Shown piece by piece: positions 3,524 to 10,278 of a stretch of DNA of 25,637 nucleotides; position 1 is the first letter of the stretch; each line of letters opens with the position of its first letter. Both the position numbers and the translations under genes were made by a program. The notes under the pieces were generated by a model. The model did no database searches. It saw only the letters and a list, made by a program, of their open reading frames with translations, and was not told where the DNA came from. This DNA is from a virus. Taxonomy: Duplodnaviria; Heunggongvirae; Uroviricota; Caudoviricetes. Where the stretch lies: positions 1 to 25,637 of the IMG/VR virus record IMGVR_UViG_2671181122_000005; one strand, written 5' to 3'.

Positions 3524-3558
3524 TTGAAAATAAAAACAAAAACCCGCCGAAGCGGGTT
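3524..3558 (-). terminator. Intrinsic terminator at the 3' end of the hok transcript
   Basis: Stem cccgc/gcggg with a cgaa loop and a long A-run on the plus strand, giving a T-run after the stem on the minus strand, about 70 nt below the hok stop. Confidence 0.55.
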
Positions 3559-3626
3559 AAGTGCGGGTGCGTTGAGGATGCCTGCCACATCAGAGGTGGC
3601 GAGGGATTTCTCCCTCGCCGGGTCTC

Positions 3627-3782
3627 TTACTCCTCAGGTTCGTAAGCTGTGAAGACAGCGACCTCCGTCTGGCCGGTTCGGATTCGTACCTCGCAGAGGT
3701 CTTTCCTCGTTACCAGTGTCGTCACTATGACGGTTAAACAGATGACGATCAGGGCGATTAACATCGCCTTTTGCTGCTTCAT
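3627..3782 (-). CDS. hokD: Hok/Gef family type I toxin, HokD (RelF)-like, 51 aa
   Basis: The internal Met of the 70-aa ORF gives MKQQKAMLIALIVICLTVIVTTLVTRKDLCEVRIRTGQTEVAVFTAYEPEE, which differs from K-12 HokD at about one residue. Confidence 0.9.
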   Translation of the reverse strand: MKQQKAMLIALIVICLTVIVTTLVTRKDLCEVRIRTGQTEVAVFTAYEPEE

Positions 3783-4095
3783 AGCCTGCTTCTCCTTGCC
3801 TTCCGGCACGTAAGAGGCTAACCTACATGTGTCTAGCATGAAATTGGCCTCAGATTAATGTTAAGCGTCTTGCAGGACGCGTAATGTTAACTGGGGCTTT
3901 TCTCTATCTGCCTTTGGTGTTCATGCCTGAGACAGATAGCCTCAAGCACCCGCAGCCATTCTACTTAACTCCCGTTACCCCGCCAATATGAAATCAGTCA
4001 GAAAGGCGATCCATAAGAATAATGAATTCTGTAAGGCAATAGTCTCACTGTCTAACATATCTTACCTGATTACTTTACAATATAATAATTCATAG

Positions 4096-4740
4096 TTAAA
4101 TCAAATGAATGTCATCATCCAATAATTCATTAGTAGTAATACTACCTTTTTTGAAAAAATTTTCATTTGTCTCAGCAATTTTTGCATCATTAACAAATTC
4201 ATCACACATCCCAAAATAATGAAAAAATCTATTTAGTTTACATATTCCAATGGTATAGTGCCCTTTAGGTGTTTTGTCCACATAAACACGATTTGCTTTT
4301 ATAATATGCATCTCATAATCATCTATATGTGGATGAACGATGCGAAATGATGCAGATGCAGTTGGATAGTTTTTGCGCCGCCCCCCATTTATTACGGGTT
4401 CAAATAACACTTCATTTTTACCTTTGAATTCATTGCAGTCAGGACATACTACACATAGATTCTTAGGTTCAAAAATAAAACATAGATATTGAGATTTTGG
4501 CACAATATGCTCTATAGGAGCAGCTTGTGCAGCTCTTACCCCAATAGGCTCATGACAATATACACATTCTAGCTTTTGTTCTTCTCTGTAATGATTTCTA
4601 ATTTCTGCACGGAGAACTTGCAAATCATCATCTCCCCAGTTGGTATGCTTAAAATCTGGAGAAGACAATTTTTTCTCAATAATATCTAATGACTCTGCGC
4701 TGAATCTAATTGGATTTTTAATTTTTGGCATAAATTTCAC
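4096..4740 (-). CDS. HNH endonuclease (214 aa), PtuB-like partner of the upstream ATPase
   Basis: HNH/zinc-finger core: CVYCHEP (aa 59-65), EHIVPKS (aa 77-83), CVVCPDCN (aa 96-103). The start overlaps the ATPase gene by 23 nt. AT-rich codon usage. Confidence 0.75.
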   Translation of the reverse strand: MKFMPKIKNPIRFSAESLDIIEKKLSSPDFKHTNWGDDDLQVLRAEIRNHYREEQKLECVYCHEPIGVRAAQAAPIEHIVPKSQYLCFIFEPKNLCVVCPDCNEFKGKNEVLFEPVINGGRRKNYPTASASFRIVHPHIDDYEMHIIKANRVYVDKTPKGHYTIGICKLNRFFHYFGMCDEFVNDAKIAETNENFFKKGSITTNELLDDDIHLI

Positions 4741-6091
4741 ACACCTGAGATACGGAATTTACGAGTTCATTAATAGGGTCATTACTATTAACGTTTTCAA
4801 GGAGAAGTTGGAGTTGTTTTAATTCACGCCAATTATCATCTGTTACTAACTTAGCAGTCTTAACTTTTGAAAGTAAATTGAAAGCTAACCTGGCAATGTA
4901 TTCATTCATAATGCCAGGGGCATCAAATAGTTCCGCAAGTTGATAGTCTGCAGACCGGTTGCTAAAGTATTTTGCTTTATAAAGATAACTTTTCGACAAA
5001 GATGTTATATAACAACCTTTATTCGGCAAATTGGATATTATTTGTGGTGAATGAGTTGCAATTATGAATTGACAACCTGAGTAAGTTAAAAATGCTTTTG
5101 TTAACATAATGATAAACTCTTCCTGCCATCGAGGATGCAAGCTTATTTCCGGTTCATCAATTAATATTATAGAACCATCAGTTATATGCCCTGCAATTCC
5201 AAGCAACATCACTAATAAACATTGTTCTCCCGAGCTCGCACGTTTAAGTGACATGGGACCATAGCTTTTTTTTATGAGTCGCATATCCATCAATCTCATG
5301 AAGCCAGCGTTCATAAGTTTAAGAATTGATCTAGAAAAATAATTATTCGCATAAGTCGAGCCAACCAATGTTTCACCATTGGTAAAATCGACTGACAAGG
5401 TTACAGCCCTACGTTCAGGTTCAAATCGATTAATTTCAACCAGTGCTTCGTAAATATCATGACGTGATTCGGAGTTTAACTTTAAGAGACTCTCAATATT
5501 CTTCCTGTCAATTTTTATATTGTATTTTAAATATAACTCCTTAACTTCCGTTAATATCTCATCTGAATATACACCAATGAAGTTATAGTCAGGAGTGTCC
5601 GGTCCGTTGTAAGTTGGTTTAAATACAAACTCTATATGGGGCTCAAAATCAATAGAATGAAAAACATCGAGTAAATTTGCAGGATTTTCTGAATAAGCAA
5701 GTTTCTCTAGCCAACCTCTCGCTGCTGAAGATAAAAGGGATACGGCATTTGATACGCCGAAGGGGCCTTCTCCACGCATACCCACATAGCGATAATTATT
5801 TTCTTTCCTTTGGTGATTTAATGACCTACGCCCTGGAGGGAATTTATCGAATGGGCTGGTAGATACGGCAATTAACTTTGGTGTTATTTCTCTGTCAAAT
5901 AATGGATTAAAAGTTTTCAAGAAATGAACATCTTGAATACAGTCTTTAGCAATCTGAGATAACAATCTGCTTTTTCCAACGCCATTTTTACCTACAATTA
6001 CTGTAAAAATATTCGCATTATCAGAAACATCACCTTCTATAGCAAGTTTTAAGGTTCGACTATCATGATGGGTATAATATAGTCTTTTCAT
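4718..6091 (-). CDS. ABC/AAA_21-type ATPase (457 aa), PtuA-like
   Basis: Walker A GKNGVGKS (aa 34-41), signature-like SSGEQ (aa 286-290), Walker B IILIDEPE (aa 308-315), H-loop ATHS (aa 345-348), with a long insert between Walker A and the signature, as in SMC/RecF-like defence ATPases. Confidence 0.75.
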   Translation of the reverse strand: MKRLYYTHHDSRTLKLAIEGDVSDNANIFTVIVGKNGVGKSRLLSQIAKDCIQDVHFLKTFNPLFDREITPKLIAVSTSPFDKFPPGRRSLNHQRKENNYRYVGMRGEGPFGVSNAVSLLSSAARGWLEKLAYSENPANLLDVFHSIDFEPHIEFVFKPTYNGPDTPDYNFIGVYSDEILTEVKELYLKYNIKIDRKNIESLLKLNSESRHDIYEALVEINRFEPERRAVTLSVDFTNGETLVGSTYANNYFSRSILKLMNAGFMRLMDMRLIKKSYGPMSLKRASSGEQCLLVMLLGIAGHITDGSIILIDEPEISLHPRWQEEFIIMLTKAFLTYSGCQFIIATHSPQIISNLPNKGCYITSLSKSYLYKAKYFSNRSADYQLAELFDAPGIMNEYIARLAFNLLSKVKTAKLVTDDNWRELKQLQLLLENVNSNDPINELVNSVSQVCEIYAKN

Positions 6092-6503
6092 TTTATTTTT
6101 CTCTCATTAAAATGCTCTTAATTAAGAATACCTATGCCTTTAACAGGCTCATAGTTATGATTTGTGATGCTTTCAAAAGGGTATGTAACTAAGTATTGAA
6201 CTCTACACCTAAGATTCTAAGATTTTTAAATTAAAGTAGTTAAACATGCTTTTGATTGTACTCATTCTATGTCCATCGTTGCTGCATGTCTAGATATCGT
6301 GCCCCGCTATTGTTATGTAATGATATGATGGACGCCCTGTCTGAAGCAGCCAGTGAAATATTTTTACTGTCTGCGTTTTCTACAGGAGTAAATCACATGA
6401 GCACAATCAGAGTTGTTGGTATTGATATTGACCTGTGCCCAATTTTTTGAGACATATATTGGTACGCTCTTGGCACAGGGCTGCTGCTGCAGCCCTGACA
6501 GCT

Positions 6504-7072
6504 TTAGACTTCGATCGATTCAGAGATCTCTAATGCATCATCAACTTCTATACCCAGATAACGAACTGTGCTTTCCGTTTTCTTATGGCCCAACGGAAGT
6601 TGGATCACCCGGAGATTCTTAGTTTTCTTGCAGACAAGGCAAGGTTTTGTTCTTCTCATGGAATGTGTGCTGTAAAGCGAATCTTCGAGACCAAGCTTTT
6701 CTCCCCCCTATGAAAGATTCGGTTATATTGCAGGATTGATATGTGTTGGTTAGTACCGACCCGAGATCGGAACAAGTAGTCTTTACTGCGTAAATTGCCA
6801 AGCTTTATCAATGCAGAAACAGCTTCTCTTGTCCCTTTGGTTATCTCAAATTGGATAGGACTGCCAGTTTTTCAGTTGCAGCACCGTAGCTCTGCTTGAA
6901 ACCGAGCTAAATCACGCGTTTTACCTTCCAGTTCAAGCCGGATTTGGAGCCCCCAGATATGAGATATCTGAAGTGGTCTTTTTGGGCCTATGATACTGTC
7001 TTTGTTCCTCGGTGACGTATTCATACTCAAATCTCCTGCAATGTGGAAGATTTGAGTATGGTTGTCTCTCAA
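6504..7072 (-). pseudogene. Frameshifted small tyrosine recombinase (FimB/FimE-size) remnant
   Basis: Minus-strand frame ending at 6504 encodes ...LYSTHSMRRTKPCLVCKKTKNLRVIQLPLGHKKTESTVRYLGIEVDDALEISESIEV*, with the HxxR...LGH...Y catalytic C-terminal pattern. Upstream pieces sit in two other frames (ORFs 6619..6801 and 6872..7072), with one shift at a C6/G6 homopolymer (6703-6708). Confidence 0.45.
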
Positions 7073-7125
7073 GAGCGAAATAGGTCAACTATAACTAGTT
7101 GTTGTGCATGTACGAATTCTGCCAA

Positions 7126-7971
7126 TTAATTATTGACAATAAAAATTCTGGAATGTTCGAAATCATCATATCGAATTATAATCTGGTTGACTGCATCTAT
7201 TGTTGGCGCCATTTCAGTTATAATATCTCGATAACCTAAAGAGTTAAATACATTTACTAAGGCCTCACACCGCAGGCCAATAGCAATTACGACATTATAA
7301 ATTGCCAGCCGTTTATTTTCTTGTTTAACTGCAAGAGTGAGTTCGATAGCAGTAGTTTTATCGCTTTGGATTGCATTATATAGAGATACTATATTTGCCA
7401 TATCATCAGAGAATGTATGTATTGAATCACAAAGAGGGACGTAATAGGCATGATAGTGTGTTTCCCAGCCAATTACTTCGAAAAGCTTTTTGGTTCCAGG
7501 ATATTCAGGTGTATTTGGCCACAATCTATTAAACATATCAGTTAGCTCTTTTCCGATACGAATCCTTTCATCTGCTGCTGGATTAGTCATTTCTTTGGAT
7601 TTTAAACACTCCAGCCACCGTTTCCCATTACTATGAACTAATTTCTTACTACCCTTGAGTAATGCTTGTGCATTTTTTCCATCATCAATTGCTATATAAA
7701 ATTGATTGGCAGCCTGTTCCATTATAACTCTAGTTAATACTTCCGATGCTGAAAAGGCTCCGGTACTCAAAGAAAATATAGCCTGATTACTAAGTTCATT
7801 CAGTACATTAAAGTAATGTAAAACCATCAATTTTTGTTCCACCCCCTTTAGGTTATCTATTTTATTTTTATGCCTCTCAAATTTCGCATGGATATATTTA
7901 TTTATCGCGGCTATTTTTTTTACATCTTCGTCGAAATCAAACGGGCAACGTCCAAACGATTTTTTCCTCAT
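7126..7971 (-). CDS. Hypothetical protein (281 aa), unassigned; candidate accessory/defence gene
   Basis: Long AT-rich ORF in the accessory block. No family recognised. The C-terminus has an Rx5H-type motif (RYDDFEH) that could be HEPN-like. Confidence 0.6.
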   Translation of the reverse strand: MRKKSFGRCPFDFDEDVKKIAAINKYIHAKFERHKNKIDNLKGVEQKLMVLHYFNVLNELSNQAIFSLSTGAFSASEVLTRVIMEQAANQFYIAIDDGKNAQALLKGSKKLVHSNGKRWLECLKSKEMTNPAADERIRIGKELTDMFNRLWPNTPEYPGTKKLFEVIGWETHYHAYYVPLCDSIHTFSDDMANIVSLYNAIQSDKTTAIELTLAVKQENKRLAIYNVVIAIGLRCEALVNVFNSLGYRDIITEMAPTIDAVNQIIIRYDDFEHSRIFIVNN

Positions 7972-8410
7972 ATATTCCTCCTGTTTTACAATCTCCCATA
8001 AGTTGGAAAATTATACACTGGAGATTACCTATAAATAACTGCGCACGATAGCTAGTCAGTGCAAGAAGTACAAACAAGTGAACGGTGCGTATCAGATACC
8101 TAGCTTAAAGTTCGCGATAGCCGTACTCTGTGTATTAGCTCAGACATTACCTGACAGGTTGAGTAGATAGAATCGAATCAAAGCTGACAGTCTGGTTTGG
8201 ACTGTGGGGTCAACCGATGGATGCAACACACAGCGATCTACAGACATTACTAACATAGCGGTGTATTAATCATCGGGGAGCAGATCAGACTAACATTAAG
8301 CATTAGTAGTAATTTGCAGAGCATCCGTTTCTTACACAAAGCAAACCCCCACGCTAGCCCAACCCTGTGCCACACAATGTCAATTCACATCTGAACTAAT
8401 GCTCTTTAAT

Positions 8411-8611
8411 CTAGTAACGTCTAAAATATCGAACATTTCCCTGATAAAATGCCAGTATGCGCTGCATAACTTCACTCATTGTGGTGGTTTCTTCCGGCAG
8501 TTCTGCCTGCGCTGGCTGTTCCTGCTGAACGTTGTTATCAGCCACACGCCAGGTGTACGCGCTTTTATCAACAAAACCAGCCTTTTTCAGTTCCCATAGT
8601 TCGTTCAGCAC
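8411..8611 (-). CDS. Small protein downstream of P (66 aa, GTG start), possibly the 3' part of a frameshifted gene starting at 8685
   Basis: A 26-codon ORF ([26 protein letters not shown]) with a strong SD (GGGAGGA) starts at 8685 in another frame and abuts this ORF. Confidence 0.3.
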
Positions 8612-8717
8612 TTCTTCACGCGCGCAGCAAGTTCTATGGATGTGGCTTTTCCCATTGCTTTCAGTGCGTCAAAAACAGTCTCCATAAATTTCCTCCCGGT
8701 AAAAATTACTTCTCAAC

Positions 8718-9383
8718 TCAAACAAGCCCAGCCGCTTTCCGGCGTTCATATTCCTGTTTCAGCAACTCAATTGGCGTTGGCCCCGACGGGCGTTTGGGTG
8801 CCGCCAGTTGTCGCCGGACTGGCGGAACGCTCAGGCCGTTACTAACATGCTTTGCCCATTTCGTCAGCTGCCGTTCTGCAAGCCGTTTTAATTCCCCTTC
8901 GGTCATCTGGCGCTCAACCCCCTTTGAACGCATCTCGAGGCAAATGTGATACAGCACAGGCTGAGACCACGGGTACTTATCACTTCCGTCGTATCGCCAG
9001 GACTCATTGCGCCAGCGGCGGTACTCCTCCATCACAGCATCCACCGTCAGACCGAATGGATTGGCTCCGCTTTCCGAAATCAGTGCCACAAACTCAGCCA
9101 GGTCCGGAGGCCATGTTTCACCCTCCCGGCAGCGGTCCATGCACTGGCGGCAGACCTGTCGGATTTGCTGCTCAGTCATCGCACCAATCTGTGCAATCCA
9201 GAGCTTCGAAGGTGCGGCCCCGTTCTTCTGGGTCCAGCGGTTCGAATAAACCTCCCCCATGAGTTCCCACAGCTTCCACGCCGTTTCCGTCGCGGATAAA
9301 TCCGTTTTCACGTTCCCACTGCTCACGTGCTGCCCGAATTTCCTGAACTGCCCGTGATGCGGTGCCCCCTGGTGCTGCTGCAT
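8718..9383 (-). CDS. Replication protein P-like (DnaB loader), start uncertain
   Basis: Similarity to lambda P from memory in segments such as PWSQPVLYHICLEMR and MTEGELKRLAERQL. The ORF overlaps the O-like ORF by about 210 nt, so the true start may be an internal Met (9260 or 9179). Confidence 0.6.
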   Translation of the reverse strand: MQQHQGAPHHGQFRKFGQHVSSGNVKTDLSATETAWKLWELMGEVYSNRWTQKNGAAPSKLWIAQIGAMTEQQIRQVCRQCMDRCREGETWPPDLAEFVALISESGANPFGLTVDAVMEEYRRWRNESWRYDGSDKYPWSQPVLYHICLEMRSKGVERQMTEGELKRLAERQLTKWAKHVSNGLSVPPVRRQLAAPKRPSGPTPIELLKQEYERRKAAGLV

Positions 9384-10278
9384 GGTTCACCCCCTTGCTG
9401 ACTGGTTTAACCTGCGCCCTGACGTGATTTACGTGACGGGCGAATTTCTGCTCCCACTGAATCTGCGTAAACACTTTCCCCTCATCACTCCAGTAATCCC
9501 GGAATGCGGCAAGTTCAGCAGGTGTAAATTCCGGCTCCGGCAAAGCCATCCCCCACAACGCAGCCCGTCGTCGAAAATCCCGCGACGGATGCCAGCTATC
9601 GGTCATCAGAAATTTTCCGATGGGTTCTCTCAGGCCATCCAGGAATACTGCCTGTAACGACAAAACTTCCTGCTCACTGGTCAGAGCACTCTCGCGTGCG
9701 TTATGTGTGGGGTTTAGAACTTTGGGTTCCTTTGGGTTCCGTGATCCGTTTTTGGGTGTCTTTGATGGAAAATTTGGGTGTCTTTGGTTATTTTCCATGC
9801 AGCTAAGAGTTCCGTTTTTGGGTCTGTTTTGTGCTGAAACATAACCATTTTCGGTACTGTTTTTATTAACAGCACCAATTTTACCCACCTTTAAAGACTC
9901 CCGTTTTTGGGTGTATTCAGGCTCGGCAACACTTTCTTCTACACCGATAAGTCGGTACACCACAATTTGCTTTGTTCTGCCTTTTCTCTCACCGGTATCA
10001 ACAATTAACCCAATCTCCATCAGGTGTCGTAAGCTGTCCTGCACTGTCTTTTTGTTCAGTTCCGTTACTTCTGCCAGGGCAGATACAGACGGGTATGCAC
10101 ACAAATCGGCACCGCACATATCAGCAAGCCAGGTCAATACTGACTTACTGGATGAACTGCCGGTTTTCACCTTTTTAGCCCATCGTAGTGCATCGATACT
10201 CATACGAACCCCTGGCAGACATTTGTTTATCTGCAAAGTAATATTGATATTGCTGACGATACGCATGCTTGAAAGCAA
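9172..10278 (-). CDS. Replication initiator O-like protein with HTH N-terminus and internal origin iterons
   Basis: 368-aa ORF with an HTH-like N-terminal region. The central part is encoded by the iteron array (PKNG-type repeats in the protein), as for lambda O/ori. Confidence 0.65.
   Translation of the reverse strand: MLSSMRIVSNINITLQINKCLPGVRMSIDALRWAKKVKTGSSSSKSVLTWLADMCGADLCAYPSVSALAEVTELNKKTVQDSLRHLMEIGLIVDTGERKGRTKQIVVYRLIGVEESVAEPEYTQKRESLKVGKIGAVNKNSTENGYVSAQNRPKNGTLSCMENNQRHPNFPSKTPKNGSRNPKEPKVLNPTHNARESALTSEQEVLSLQAVFLDGLREPIGKFLMTDSWHPSRDFRRRAALWGMALPEPEFTPAELAAFRDYWSDEGKVFTQIQWEQKFARHVNHVRAQVKPVSKGVNHAAAPGGTASRAVQEIRAAREQWERENGFIRDGNGVEAVGTHGGGLFEPLDPEERGRTFEALDCTDWCDD
9715..9915. 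repeat. Iteron array (TTTGGGT-containing direct repeats), putative phage origin of replication inside the O-like gene
   Basis: At least 5-6 copies of ccgtttttgggtgt / ctttgggttcc-type repeats between 9720 and 9915, with an adjacent AT-rich stretch (9840-9890). Confidence 0.6.

Follow-up and report, generated by a model that had tools for sequence, protein, structure and literature searches.

A gene for a 281-amino-acid (aa) protein of the family DUF5677 lies at positions 7126-7971, on the minus strand, of a 25,637-nucleotide (nt) stretch of viral DNA (IMG/VR record IMGVR_UViG_2671181122_000005; the whole stretch is referred to here as the window), which represents a Rac/Qin-type lambdoid prophage of Escherichia coli. 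The interpretation that we favour, tentatively and with rather less than even confidence, is that this DUF5677 protein acts alone as an anti-phage protein, of the abortive-infection or exclusion type, and does so independently of the Septu system encoded next to it. The strongest argument for a defence role is evidence by position, i.e., the gene occupies a slot beside a small tyrosine recombinase that is shared with recognized defence genes, and as the single-gene cargo of a prophage hotspot the gene is of a kind that is already known. A preliminary description, made from the DNA sequence alone, had put the gene forward as a candidate stand-alone defence gene; this proposal has become credible, as the same gene and leader are found in P2-like prophages without Septu and as the slot elsewhere holds PD-T7-1, HEC-08, a dGTPase, or Lamassu.

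The gene and the features immediately upstream of it are as follows.
7126-7971, minus strand: DUF5677 coding sequence (CDS), supported by the open reading frame (ORF) call, translation, Pfam PF18928, PHROG 4167, family alignments, an AlphaFold model, and the ratio of nonsynonymous to synonymous substitution rates (dN/dS).
7982-7977, minus strand: Shine-Dalgarno sequence AGGAGG, 5 nt before the ATG of the DUF5677 gene, read from the sequence.
8015-8010, minus strand: candidate sigma-70 -10 hexamer, a perfect TATAAT, 38 nt before the same ATG, read from the sequence.
7972-8288, minus strand: non-coding leader of the DUF5677 module, 88% identical to P2-prophage copies, delimited by segment alignment and blastn boundaries.
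8187-8205, no strand assigned: palindrome ACAGTC-N7-GACTGT in the leader, matched once in the window versus 0.03 matches expected.

The ORF represents a real gene and is intact, with an ATG start, 281 codons, a stop, and a ribosome-binding site. The same CDS is labelled 'DUF5677 domain-containing protein' by RefSeq in 19 complete E. coli genomes, including that of enteropathogenic E. coli (EPEC) E2348/69; by our own arithmetic, the chance of an open frame of 281 codons at this composition is approx. 1e-9. Comparison of the window allele with the 92%-identical allele of P2 prophages yielded a dN/dS of 0.31, which indicates that the gene is under purifying selection. With a guanine-plus-cytosine (GC) content of 34.8%, as compared to 36.5% for the island at 4024-8312 and 49.5% for the remaining window, the gene is AT-rich and horizontally acquired. 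The preliminary description was thus correct in regarding the frame as intact and AT-rich, and also in assigning to it an upstream non-coding region of its own, since no ORF longer than 46 aa was found on the gene's strand between 7972 and approx. 8410. The promoter at 8010-8015 is a candidate read from the sequence: the -35 element paired with the TATAAT is weak (TTATTT) and falls under the threshold of the consensus promoter scan, which did not call this site. Relative to E2348/69, the window allele lacks 1 nt of a T-run close to its 3' end (at approx. 7136-7141), which changes the C-terminus from FYCQ* to FIVNN* and leaves the rest of the protein the same; the altered residues fall in the low-confidence, disordered tail of the AlphaFold model. 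This frameshift allele was found exactly in two further genomes, and the deletion may represent either a true polymorphism or a sequencing error in the homopolymer.

Profile matches place the protein in the families DUF5677 (Pfam PF18928; 37.4 bits versus a gathering score of 27.1, residues 49-195) and PHROG 4167 (E 1.3e-175), both of which are without an assigned function (for DUF5677, structure and phenotype are lacking as well), and no match to a phage structural or replication family was found for the 281-aa protein. It is hence no longer 'unassigned', as the preliminary description had called it. No Pfam match other than DUF5677 and no DNA-binding, membrane, or signal feature was detected, and no segment is membrane-like (highest 19-residue Kyte-Doolittle hydropathy, 1.58). 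DUF5677 is rare, as HMMER, run exhaustively over 1.84 billion representative proteins, returned only 66 relatives at E<=1e-3, nearly all of them single-domain proteins of 270-300 aa, and a further search with a profile built from 43 sequences contributed few sequences and revealed no domain fusions. The Pfam DUF5677 model is matched by all 43 aligned relatives (best E 3e-20). The gene was not found by tblastn in 50,697 phage genomes, and the only match among plasmids was an 8.4-kb record with the same Septu/recombinase/DUF5677 segment. Among distant members of the family, one (L018) is located in another myovirus tail region, one (L020) adjoins a PemK toxin pair, and one (L017) adjoins a 2098-aa helicase with YjiV_N and MZB domains. 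The literature found to mention DUF5677 does not characterize it, and no paper with the protein accessions was found; the supplements of the P2/P4 hotspot study do not contain the family, nor does DefensePredictor list it among its newly validated domains.

Genome comparisons indicate that the gene is the cargo of a cassette that has been exchanged between lambdoid and P2-like prophages. Among 5426 complete E. coli genomes, 57 carry the gene; an allele with at least 99% identity to that of the window was found in 19 genomes, always with the window arrangement, and a 92%-identical allele in 38. All five of the 92%-allele loci inspected are P2-like prophages in which the gene lies between tail-fibre assembly and sheath genes, with the same leader and without Septu; this P2 tail-gene (Z/fun-type) site has been listed as an accessory and defence hotspot (PMC13586616). 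The segment common to the window and the P2 copy, which extends over approx. 1.75 kb from window position 8288 down to approx. 6540, comprises the 317-nt leader, the DUF5677 gene, a 101-nt spacer, and a tyrosine recombinase gene that encodes 194 aa. Homology stops at 8288, which in the P2 copies is exactly where the P2 backbone starts; in the window, the lambdoid backbone is found again from 8313. The half-site motif CTGACAGTCTG of the leader palindrome recurs inverted at both borders of the P2 tail hotspot, with one copy in the P2 backbone (copies at 7770-7780, 10079-10089, and 10202-10212 of locus L003, the P2-like prophage of strain PCN033), and this recurrence may relate to the entry of the cassette into P2; candidate roles for the palindrome itself are an operator, a hairpin, or a recombination site. 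As a separate observation, three of the five P2 loci contain, along with the DUF5677-recombinase cassette, a hydrophobic ORF of 125 aa without Pfam or PADLOC match (L003 7914-8291, plus strand), which the window lacks.

The leader, at 88% identity, is conserved at about the level of synonymous sites. No tandem repeats were found in 7972-8700, Rfam gave no match to the leader, and its folding energy equals that of shuffled sequence (z-score -0.04). An RNA antitoxin, a riboswitch, or a small ORF in the leader was thus rejected, as was a type III toxin-antitoxin or abortive-infection system with an RNA antitoxin, for which neither upstream tandem repeats nor a structured RNA were found. Since the leader shows no sign of an RNA or small-protein antitoxin, the DUF5677 protein, if toxic, would have to be self-restrained. 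We also considered an invertible DUF5677 segment: an imperfect inverted repeat of 35 nt (6287-6321 and 8024-8058, 27 of 35 positions matching) brackets the promoter region, the gene, and the dead recombinase. The 27 matches equal the best of 100 composition-preserving shuffles, which is borderline, and no comparable inverted repeats were seen flanking intact recombinase loci; inversion is conceivable but unsupported, and the repeat is noted here as an observation rather than a claim.

The positional argument depends on the recombinase unit downstream of the gene and on the genes found beside this unit in a survey of eight loci besides the window.
6504-7024, minus strand: tyrosine recombinase pseudogene with an 82-bp deletion and frameshifts, aligned to an intact copy; a RefSeq pseudogene in E2348/69.
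6462-7078, minus strand: conserved recombinase unit, i.e., the gene with approx. 50 nt upstream and approx. 40 nt downstream, as delimited by blastn versus L009-L012.
7022-7034 and 7048-7060: palindrome with perfect 13-bp arms (CATACTCAAATCT and AGATTTGAGTATG) and a 13-nt spacer, over the recombinase ribosome-binding site and start codon.
L003 8314-8898 and L010 6001-6603: intact recombinase copies of 194-200 aa.
L009: PD-T7-1 beside the unit (E 3e-156).
L010 and L023: HEC-08/DUF3644 beside the unit (E 1e-173).
L021: anti-phage dGTPase beside the unit (E 6e-144).
L024: Lamassu LmuA and LmuB beside the unit.
L011: dynamin-family LeoBC-like proteins beside the unit (the same protein, WP_000998321.1, is found in L023), with a frameshifted reverse transcriptase nearby.
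L012: CBS-domain protein beside the unit.
L022 and others: unrecognized ORFs beside the unit.
4096-6091, minus strand: complete Septu of the window, with PtuA at 4718-6091 (PADLOC E 1e-165) and PtuB at 4096-4740 (E 1e-83).

The recombinase, which is intact in PCN033 (194 aa; Pfam Phage_integrase E 9e-18), is a protein of approx. 200 aa with the catalytic R, H-x-x-R, H, and Y residues present; it is of the size of FimE, with which it shares 25% identity over 155 residues. Its unit was detected at 80-95% nucleotide identity in 801 of the 5426 genomes, in lambdoid prophages, P2 prophages, chromosomal islands, and one plasmid, and it is 88-92% identical in the E. coli islands with other cargo (L009-L012), with the DNA on either flank varying between loci. 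The 13-bp-arm palindrome, which may form a translational hairpin or be bound by the recombinase itself, is kept in every locus with the unit, and the point at which cargo switches (7078) is located 18 nt past it. In six of the eight other loci sampled, a defence gene recognized by PADLOC stands directly beside the unit; the corresponding neighbour in the window is Septu, and DUF5677 occupies the same slot as PD-T7-1 and HEC-08. The recombinase thus looks like a tyrosine-recombinase marker of defence hotspots, and no description of it was found in the literature under its accessions. A parallel exists in Bacillota, where the RADS serine-recombinase marker is likewise a small site-specific recombinase flanked by variable defence cargo, and where DUF5677 was flagged as enriched in, and co-transcribed with serine recombinases on, defence-rich contigs (PMC12632615); this marker differs from the FimE-sized tyrosine recombinase of the window in being a serine recombinase.

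A possible mode of action is suggested by conservation and by the predicted structure. In the 43-sequence alignment R81 is invariant, and L79, E85, N89, W119, P158, F164, Y173, S183, H185, D190, and N193 are conserved in at least 90% of sequences; all family-conserved residues, which form two motifs (S-R-x3-E-x3-N and S-D-S-x-H-x2-S-E-D-x2-N), are kept in the window protein. An AlphaFold model computed from this alignment (predicted local distance difference test score [pLDDT] 94.2, predicted template modelling score [pTM] 0.91; an earlier run with four sequences was poor, with a pLDDT of 61, and was discarded) shows a helical fold of ten helices and no strands. R81, E85, and N89 lie on one face of helix 3 (residues 73-94), S183, H185, D190, and N193 lie at the junction of helices 7 and 8, with H185 where helix 170-186 ends, immediately ahead of the loop that leads to the following helix, and helices 99-166 lie between the two. 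In HEPN domains, the Rx4-6H motif is located where helix 3 ends and a conserved acidic residue on helix 2, helices 2 and 3 are often separated by inserts, and the catalytic residues have been relocated in some families, including AF0298 (2hsb) and AbiV (PMC3710099). The modelled layout of DUF5677 is compatible with a HEPN-like core with a displaced Arg. The differences from the HEPN superfamily, of which the minimal HEPN-T/UPF0332 proteins (AF0298, PDB 2hsb) and AbiV-type variants are the closest comparison, are that DUF5677 has no Rx4-6H motif, its invariant Arg lying approx. 100 residues upstream of H185 on another helix, and that the protein is double a HEPN domain in size and has four additional helices.

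The preliminary description had raised the possibility of a HEPN-like nuclease, as one far from proven, through another element, an Rx5H-type motif (RYDDFEH) near the C-terminus. This motif is indeed present (residues 267-273); however, it is situated in the last helix rather than where HEPN motifs lie, and it is not conserved, as relatives of 23-43% identity carry Q, N, E, or D instead of R267 and Q, A, V, or a gap instead of H273, with the segment reading E-H-[DE] in the wider family. A HEPN-like fold is possible and is not established by RYDDFEH. In the favoured interpretation, the gene encodes a cytoplasmic, all-helical protein of approx. 32 kDa, presumably expressed from its own promoter as a prophage 'moron', and belongs to a cassette located between replication gene P and nin/hokD in the lambdoid prophage and between the tail-fibre assembly and sheath genes in P2-like prophages. 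The helical core of the protein would resemble a HEPN domain with a non-canonical site, in which the conserved His (S183-x-H185) is placed at a helix end, where HEPN domains carry the His of Rx4-6H, and the invariant Arg and an acidic residue (R81-x3-E85-x3-N89) on an earlier helix; this site may carry out metal-independent RNA cleavage that is held off until infection. A more far-reaching proposal, which we regard as speculative and rather unlikely in its entirety, is that DUF5677 represents a new HEPN-like effector branch with a split site (Arg/Glu on one helix, Ser-x-His at the end of another) that provides one-gene abortive infection and moves between lambdoid and P2 prophages as cargo of a FimE-sized recombinase, which would anchor a defence hotspot in approx. 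15% of E. coli genomes and be the counterpart of the serine-recombinase marker.

A number of results weigh against a defensive, HEPN-like DUF5677 protein and have to be set against the positional evidence. There is no Arg 4-6 residues before H185 (positions 179-181 are P, L, C, or small residues, and never R, in the DUF5677 alignments), so the defining HEPN motif is absent, which is why we propose action in the manner of a HEPN RNase only conditionally and do not file the protein as HEPN. Neither the protein nor any of the 43 relatives matches a HEPN-clan Pfam family; phmmer and profile searches of PDB sequences returned chance-level matches, and Foldseek searches of PDB and BFVD yielded no significant structural match, with nothing below E 0.04 and TM scores <0.25. 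Alignment by hhalign of the DUF5677 profile with HEC-08/DUF3644 and with the CBS-domain protein of the recombinase island gave probabilities <1%, a weak comparison given the single-sequence targets. PADLOC-DB v2 (5027 models) has no family that matches the protein at E<=1, and no match was found in NCBIfam. Several relatives (L004, L006, and L014) are orphans amid housekeeping (metabolic and regulatory) genes. Finally, one Bacillota DUF5677 ORF that was assayed in Enterococcus faecalis versus six phages was not among the five protective ORFs (PMC12632615), which represents a weak negative because of the other host, the number of phages, and the distant homologue. Part of this evidence, i.e., the lack of a PADLOC match, the Bacillota result, and the relatives that stand singly among metabolic or regulatory genes, suits the main alternative, that the gene is a prophage moron without a defence role (it could be an anti-defence protein, regulate the physiology of the host or the prophage, or bring the lysogen some other benefit) and that its hotspot position reflects tolerance of insertion only. 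At these loci, roughly one fifth to one quarter of P2/P4 elements have no recognizable defence genes, and partition and toxin genes are also among the contents of the P2 hotspot (PMC9122126, PMC13586616). We nonetheless consider this alternative doubtful, though a serious contender, since most sampled neighbours of the recombinase unit are recognized defence genes, since the protein lacks DNA-binding, membrane, or signal features, and since the polar nature of the conserved residues (R, E, N, S, H, and D) resembles that of an active site more than of a scaffold.

Other explanations tie the gene to its neighbours or deny it a current function. A functional partnership with the tyrosine recombinase, as a directionality or accessory factor or as a stabilizing 'addiction' module, would account for the fact that the two genes are adjacent, co-directional, and 101 nt apart, for their joint movement between two phage types, and for the occurrence of DUF5677 beside serine recombinases in Bacillota (PMC12632615); this partnership appears improbable, as the recombinase unit is present in approx. 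800 genomes and DUF5677 in only 57, and as DUF5677 is intact where the recombinase is a pseudogene or shortened (in the P2 loci the recombinase is intact in three of five and shortened in two of five, with DUF5677 intact throughout). In addition, none of the eight contigs with distant DUF5677 proteins that were inspected shows a recombinase Pfam match among the neighbours, which argues against an obligatory partnership. Far less likely still is that DUF5677 is a third, accessory component of Septu. The preliminary description had considered joint action with the neighbouring ATPase/HNH pair, which lies on the same strand in the same AT-rich island, and all 19 genomes with the Septu variant of the window, which occurs only with the lambdoid arrangement, carry the 99% DUF5677 allele. 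These 19 genomes contain one near-identical prophage lineage (at least 99.6% identity), however, and therefore amount to a single observation, and the pair already forms a complete Septu: the full-length PADLOC models are matched by PtuA and PtuB alone, DUF5677 matches none, and Septu requires no third gene. The dead recombinase gene and 370 nt of unrelated DNA separate DUF5677 from ptuA, the cassette shared with P2 ends at approx. 6540, before ptuA, and one strain has a split PtuA and an intact DUF5677. None of the 38 genomes with the P2-borne allele shows a match to this Septu, and the presence of the cassette in P2-like prophages without Septu implies that the gene does not depend on PtuA or PtuB. 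The independence of DUF5677, an immediate neighbour of Septu and yet a separate module, is thus well supported by genome comparison. Equally remote is the notion that the gene is a decaying remnant without current function, which could point to the neighbouring recombinase and DUF1627 pseudogenes and to the frameshift in the last codons of the window allele; the frame is intact in all 57 genomes, one partial match aside, the dN/dS value indicates constraint, the family-conserved residues have all been retained, and the frameshift touches the disordered tail only.

The closest analogues of DUF5677 in the favoured role of a stand-alone defence protein are PD-T7-1, HEC-08/DUF3644, and Rst_DUF4238, which are likewise one-gene systems of 280-450 aa that temperate phages carry in AT-rich accessory islands; two of them, PD-T7-1 and HEC-08, hold the equivalent position beside the same recombinase unit. 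None of the three has sequence similarity to DUF5677, which also differs in orientation: it is co-directional with the recombinase, from which the other cargo genes diverge.

The remaining features of the locus describe the lambdoid backbone around the replaceable block.
Minus strand, in order: cro, ydaT-like, O-like, P (8718-9383), DUF1627 remnant, DUF5677, dead recombinase, PtuA, PtuB, hokD/sok, rem, DUF968, RusA.
8411-8685, minus strand: frameshifted DUF1627 remnant between replication gene P and the island, a RefSeq pseudogene.
3627-3951, minus strand: hokD toxin gene and sok antisense RNA (Rfam RF01794, 117 bits), at the island border on the nin side.

The same backbone, up to window position 4023 and from 8313 onwards, is found in a sister prophage of strain JS316 with other genes in between, which makes the island at 4024-8312 an accessory block that can be replaced; in the lambdoid backbone, the hotspot has its upstream edge at the DUF1627 remnant. 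Near the hokD border, a terminator-like hairpin was noted at 3541-3558, together with a weak isrK-like match at 3537-3618 (25.7 bits, under the gathering score). Elsewhere in the window, the segment 20001-20500 stands out by a GC fraction of 0.67 and an AT skew of -0.57, which are far from the rest of the window, and lies inside the overlapping long ORFs 19501-20409 (plus strand) and 19786-21105 (minus strand).

If DUF5677 protects against phages, a function would be provided for a Pfam family that has none, and a compact one-gene system would have been brought by unrelated temperate phages into EPEC E2348/69, the K1 strain IHE3034, and avian pathogenic E. coli (APEC) strains. If, in addition, its core is a HEPN variant with relocated catalytic residues, searches for HEPN nucleases would gain a wider sequence definition, and if there is no anti-phage phenotype, the gene would represent a documented non-defence cargo in a slot dominated by defence genes. 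The recombinase-anchored hotspot is perhaps a more useful lead than DUF5677 itself, as the recombinase may serve as a practical bait for new defence genes, for which its unrecognized neighbours, including DUF5677, are candidates.

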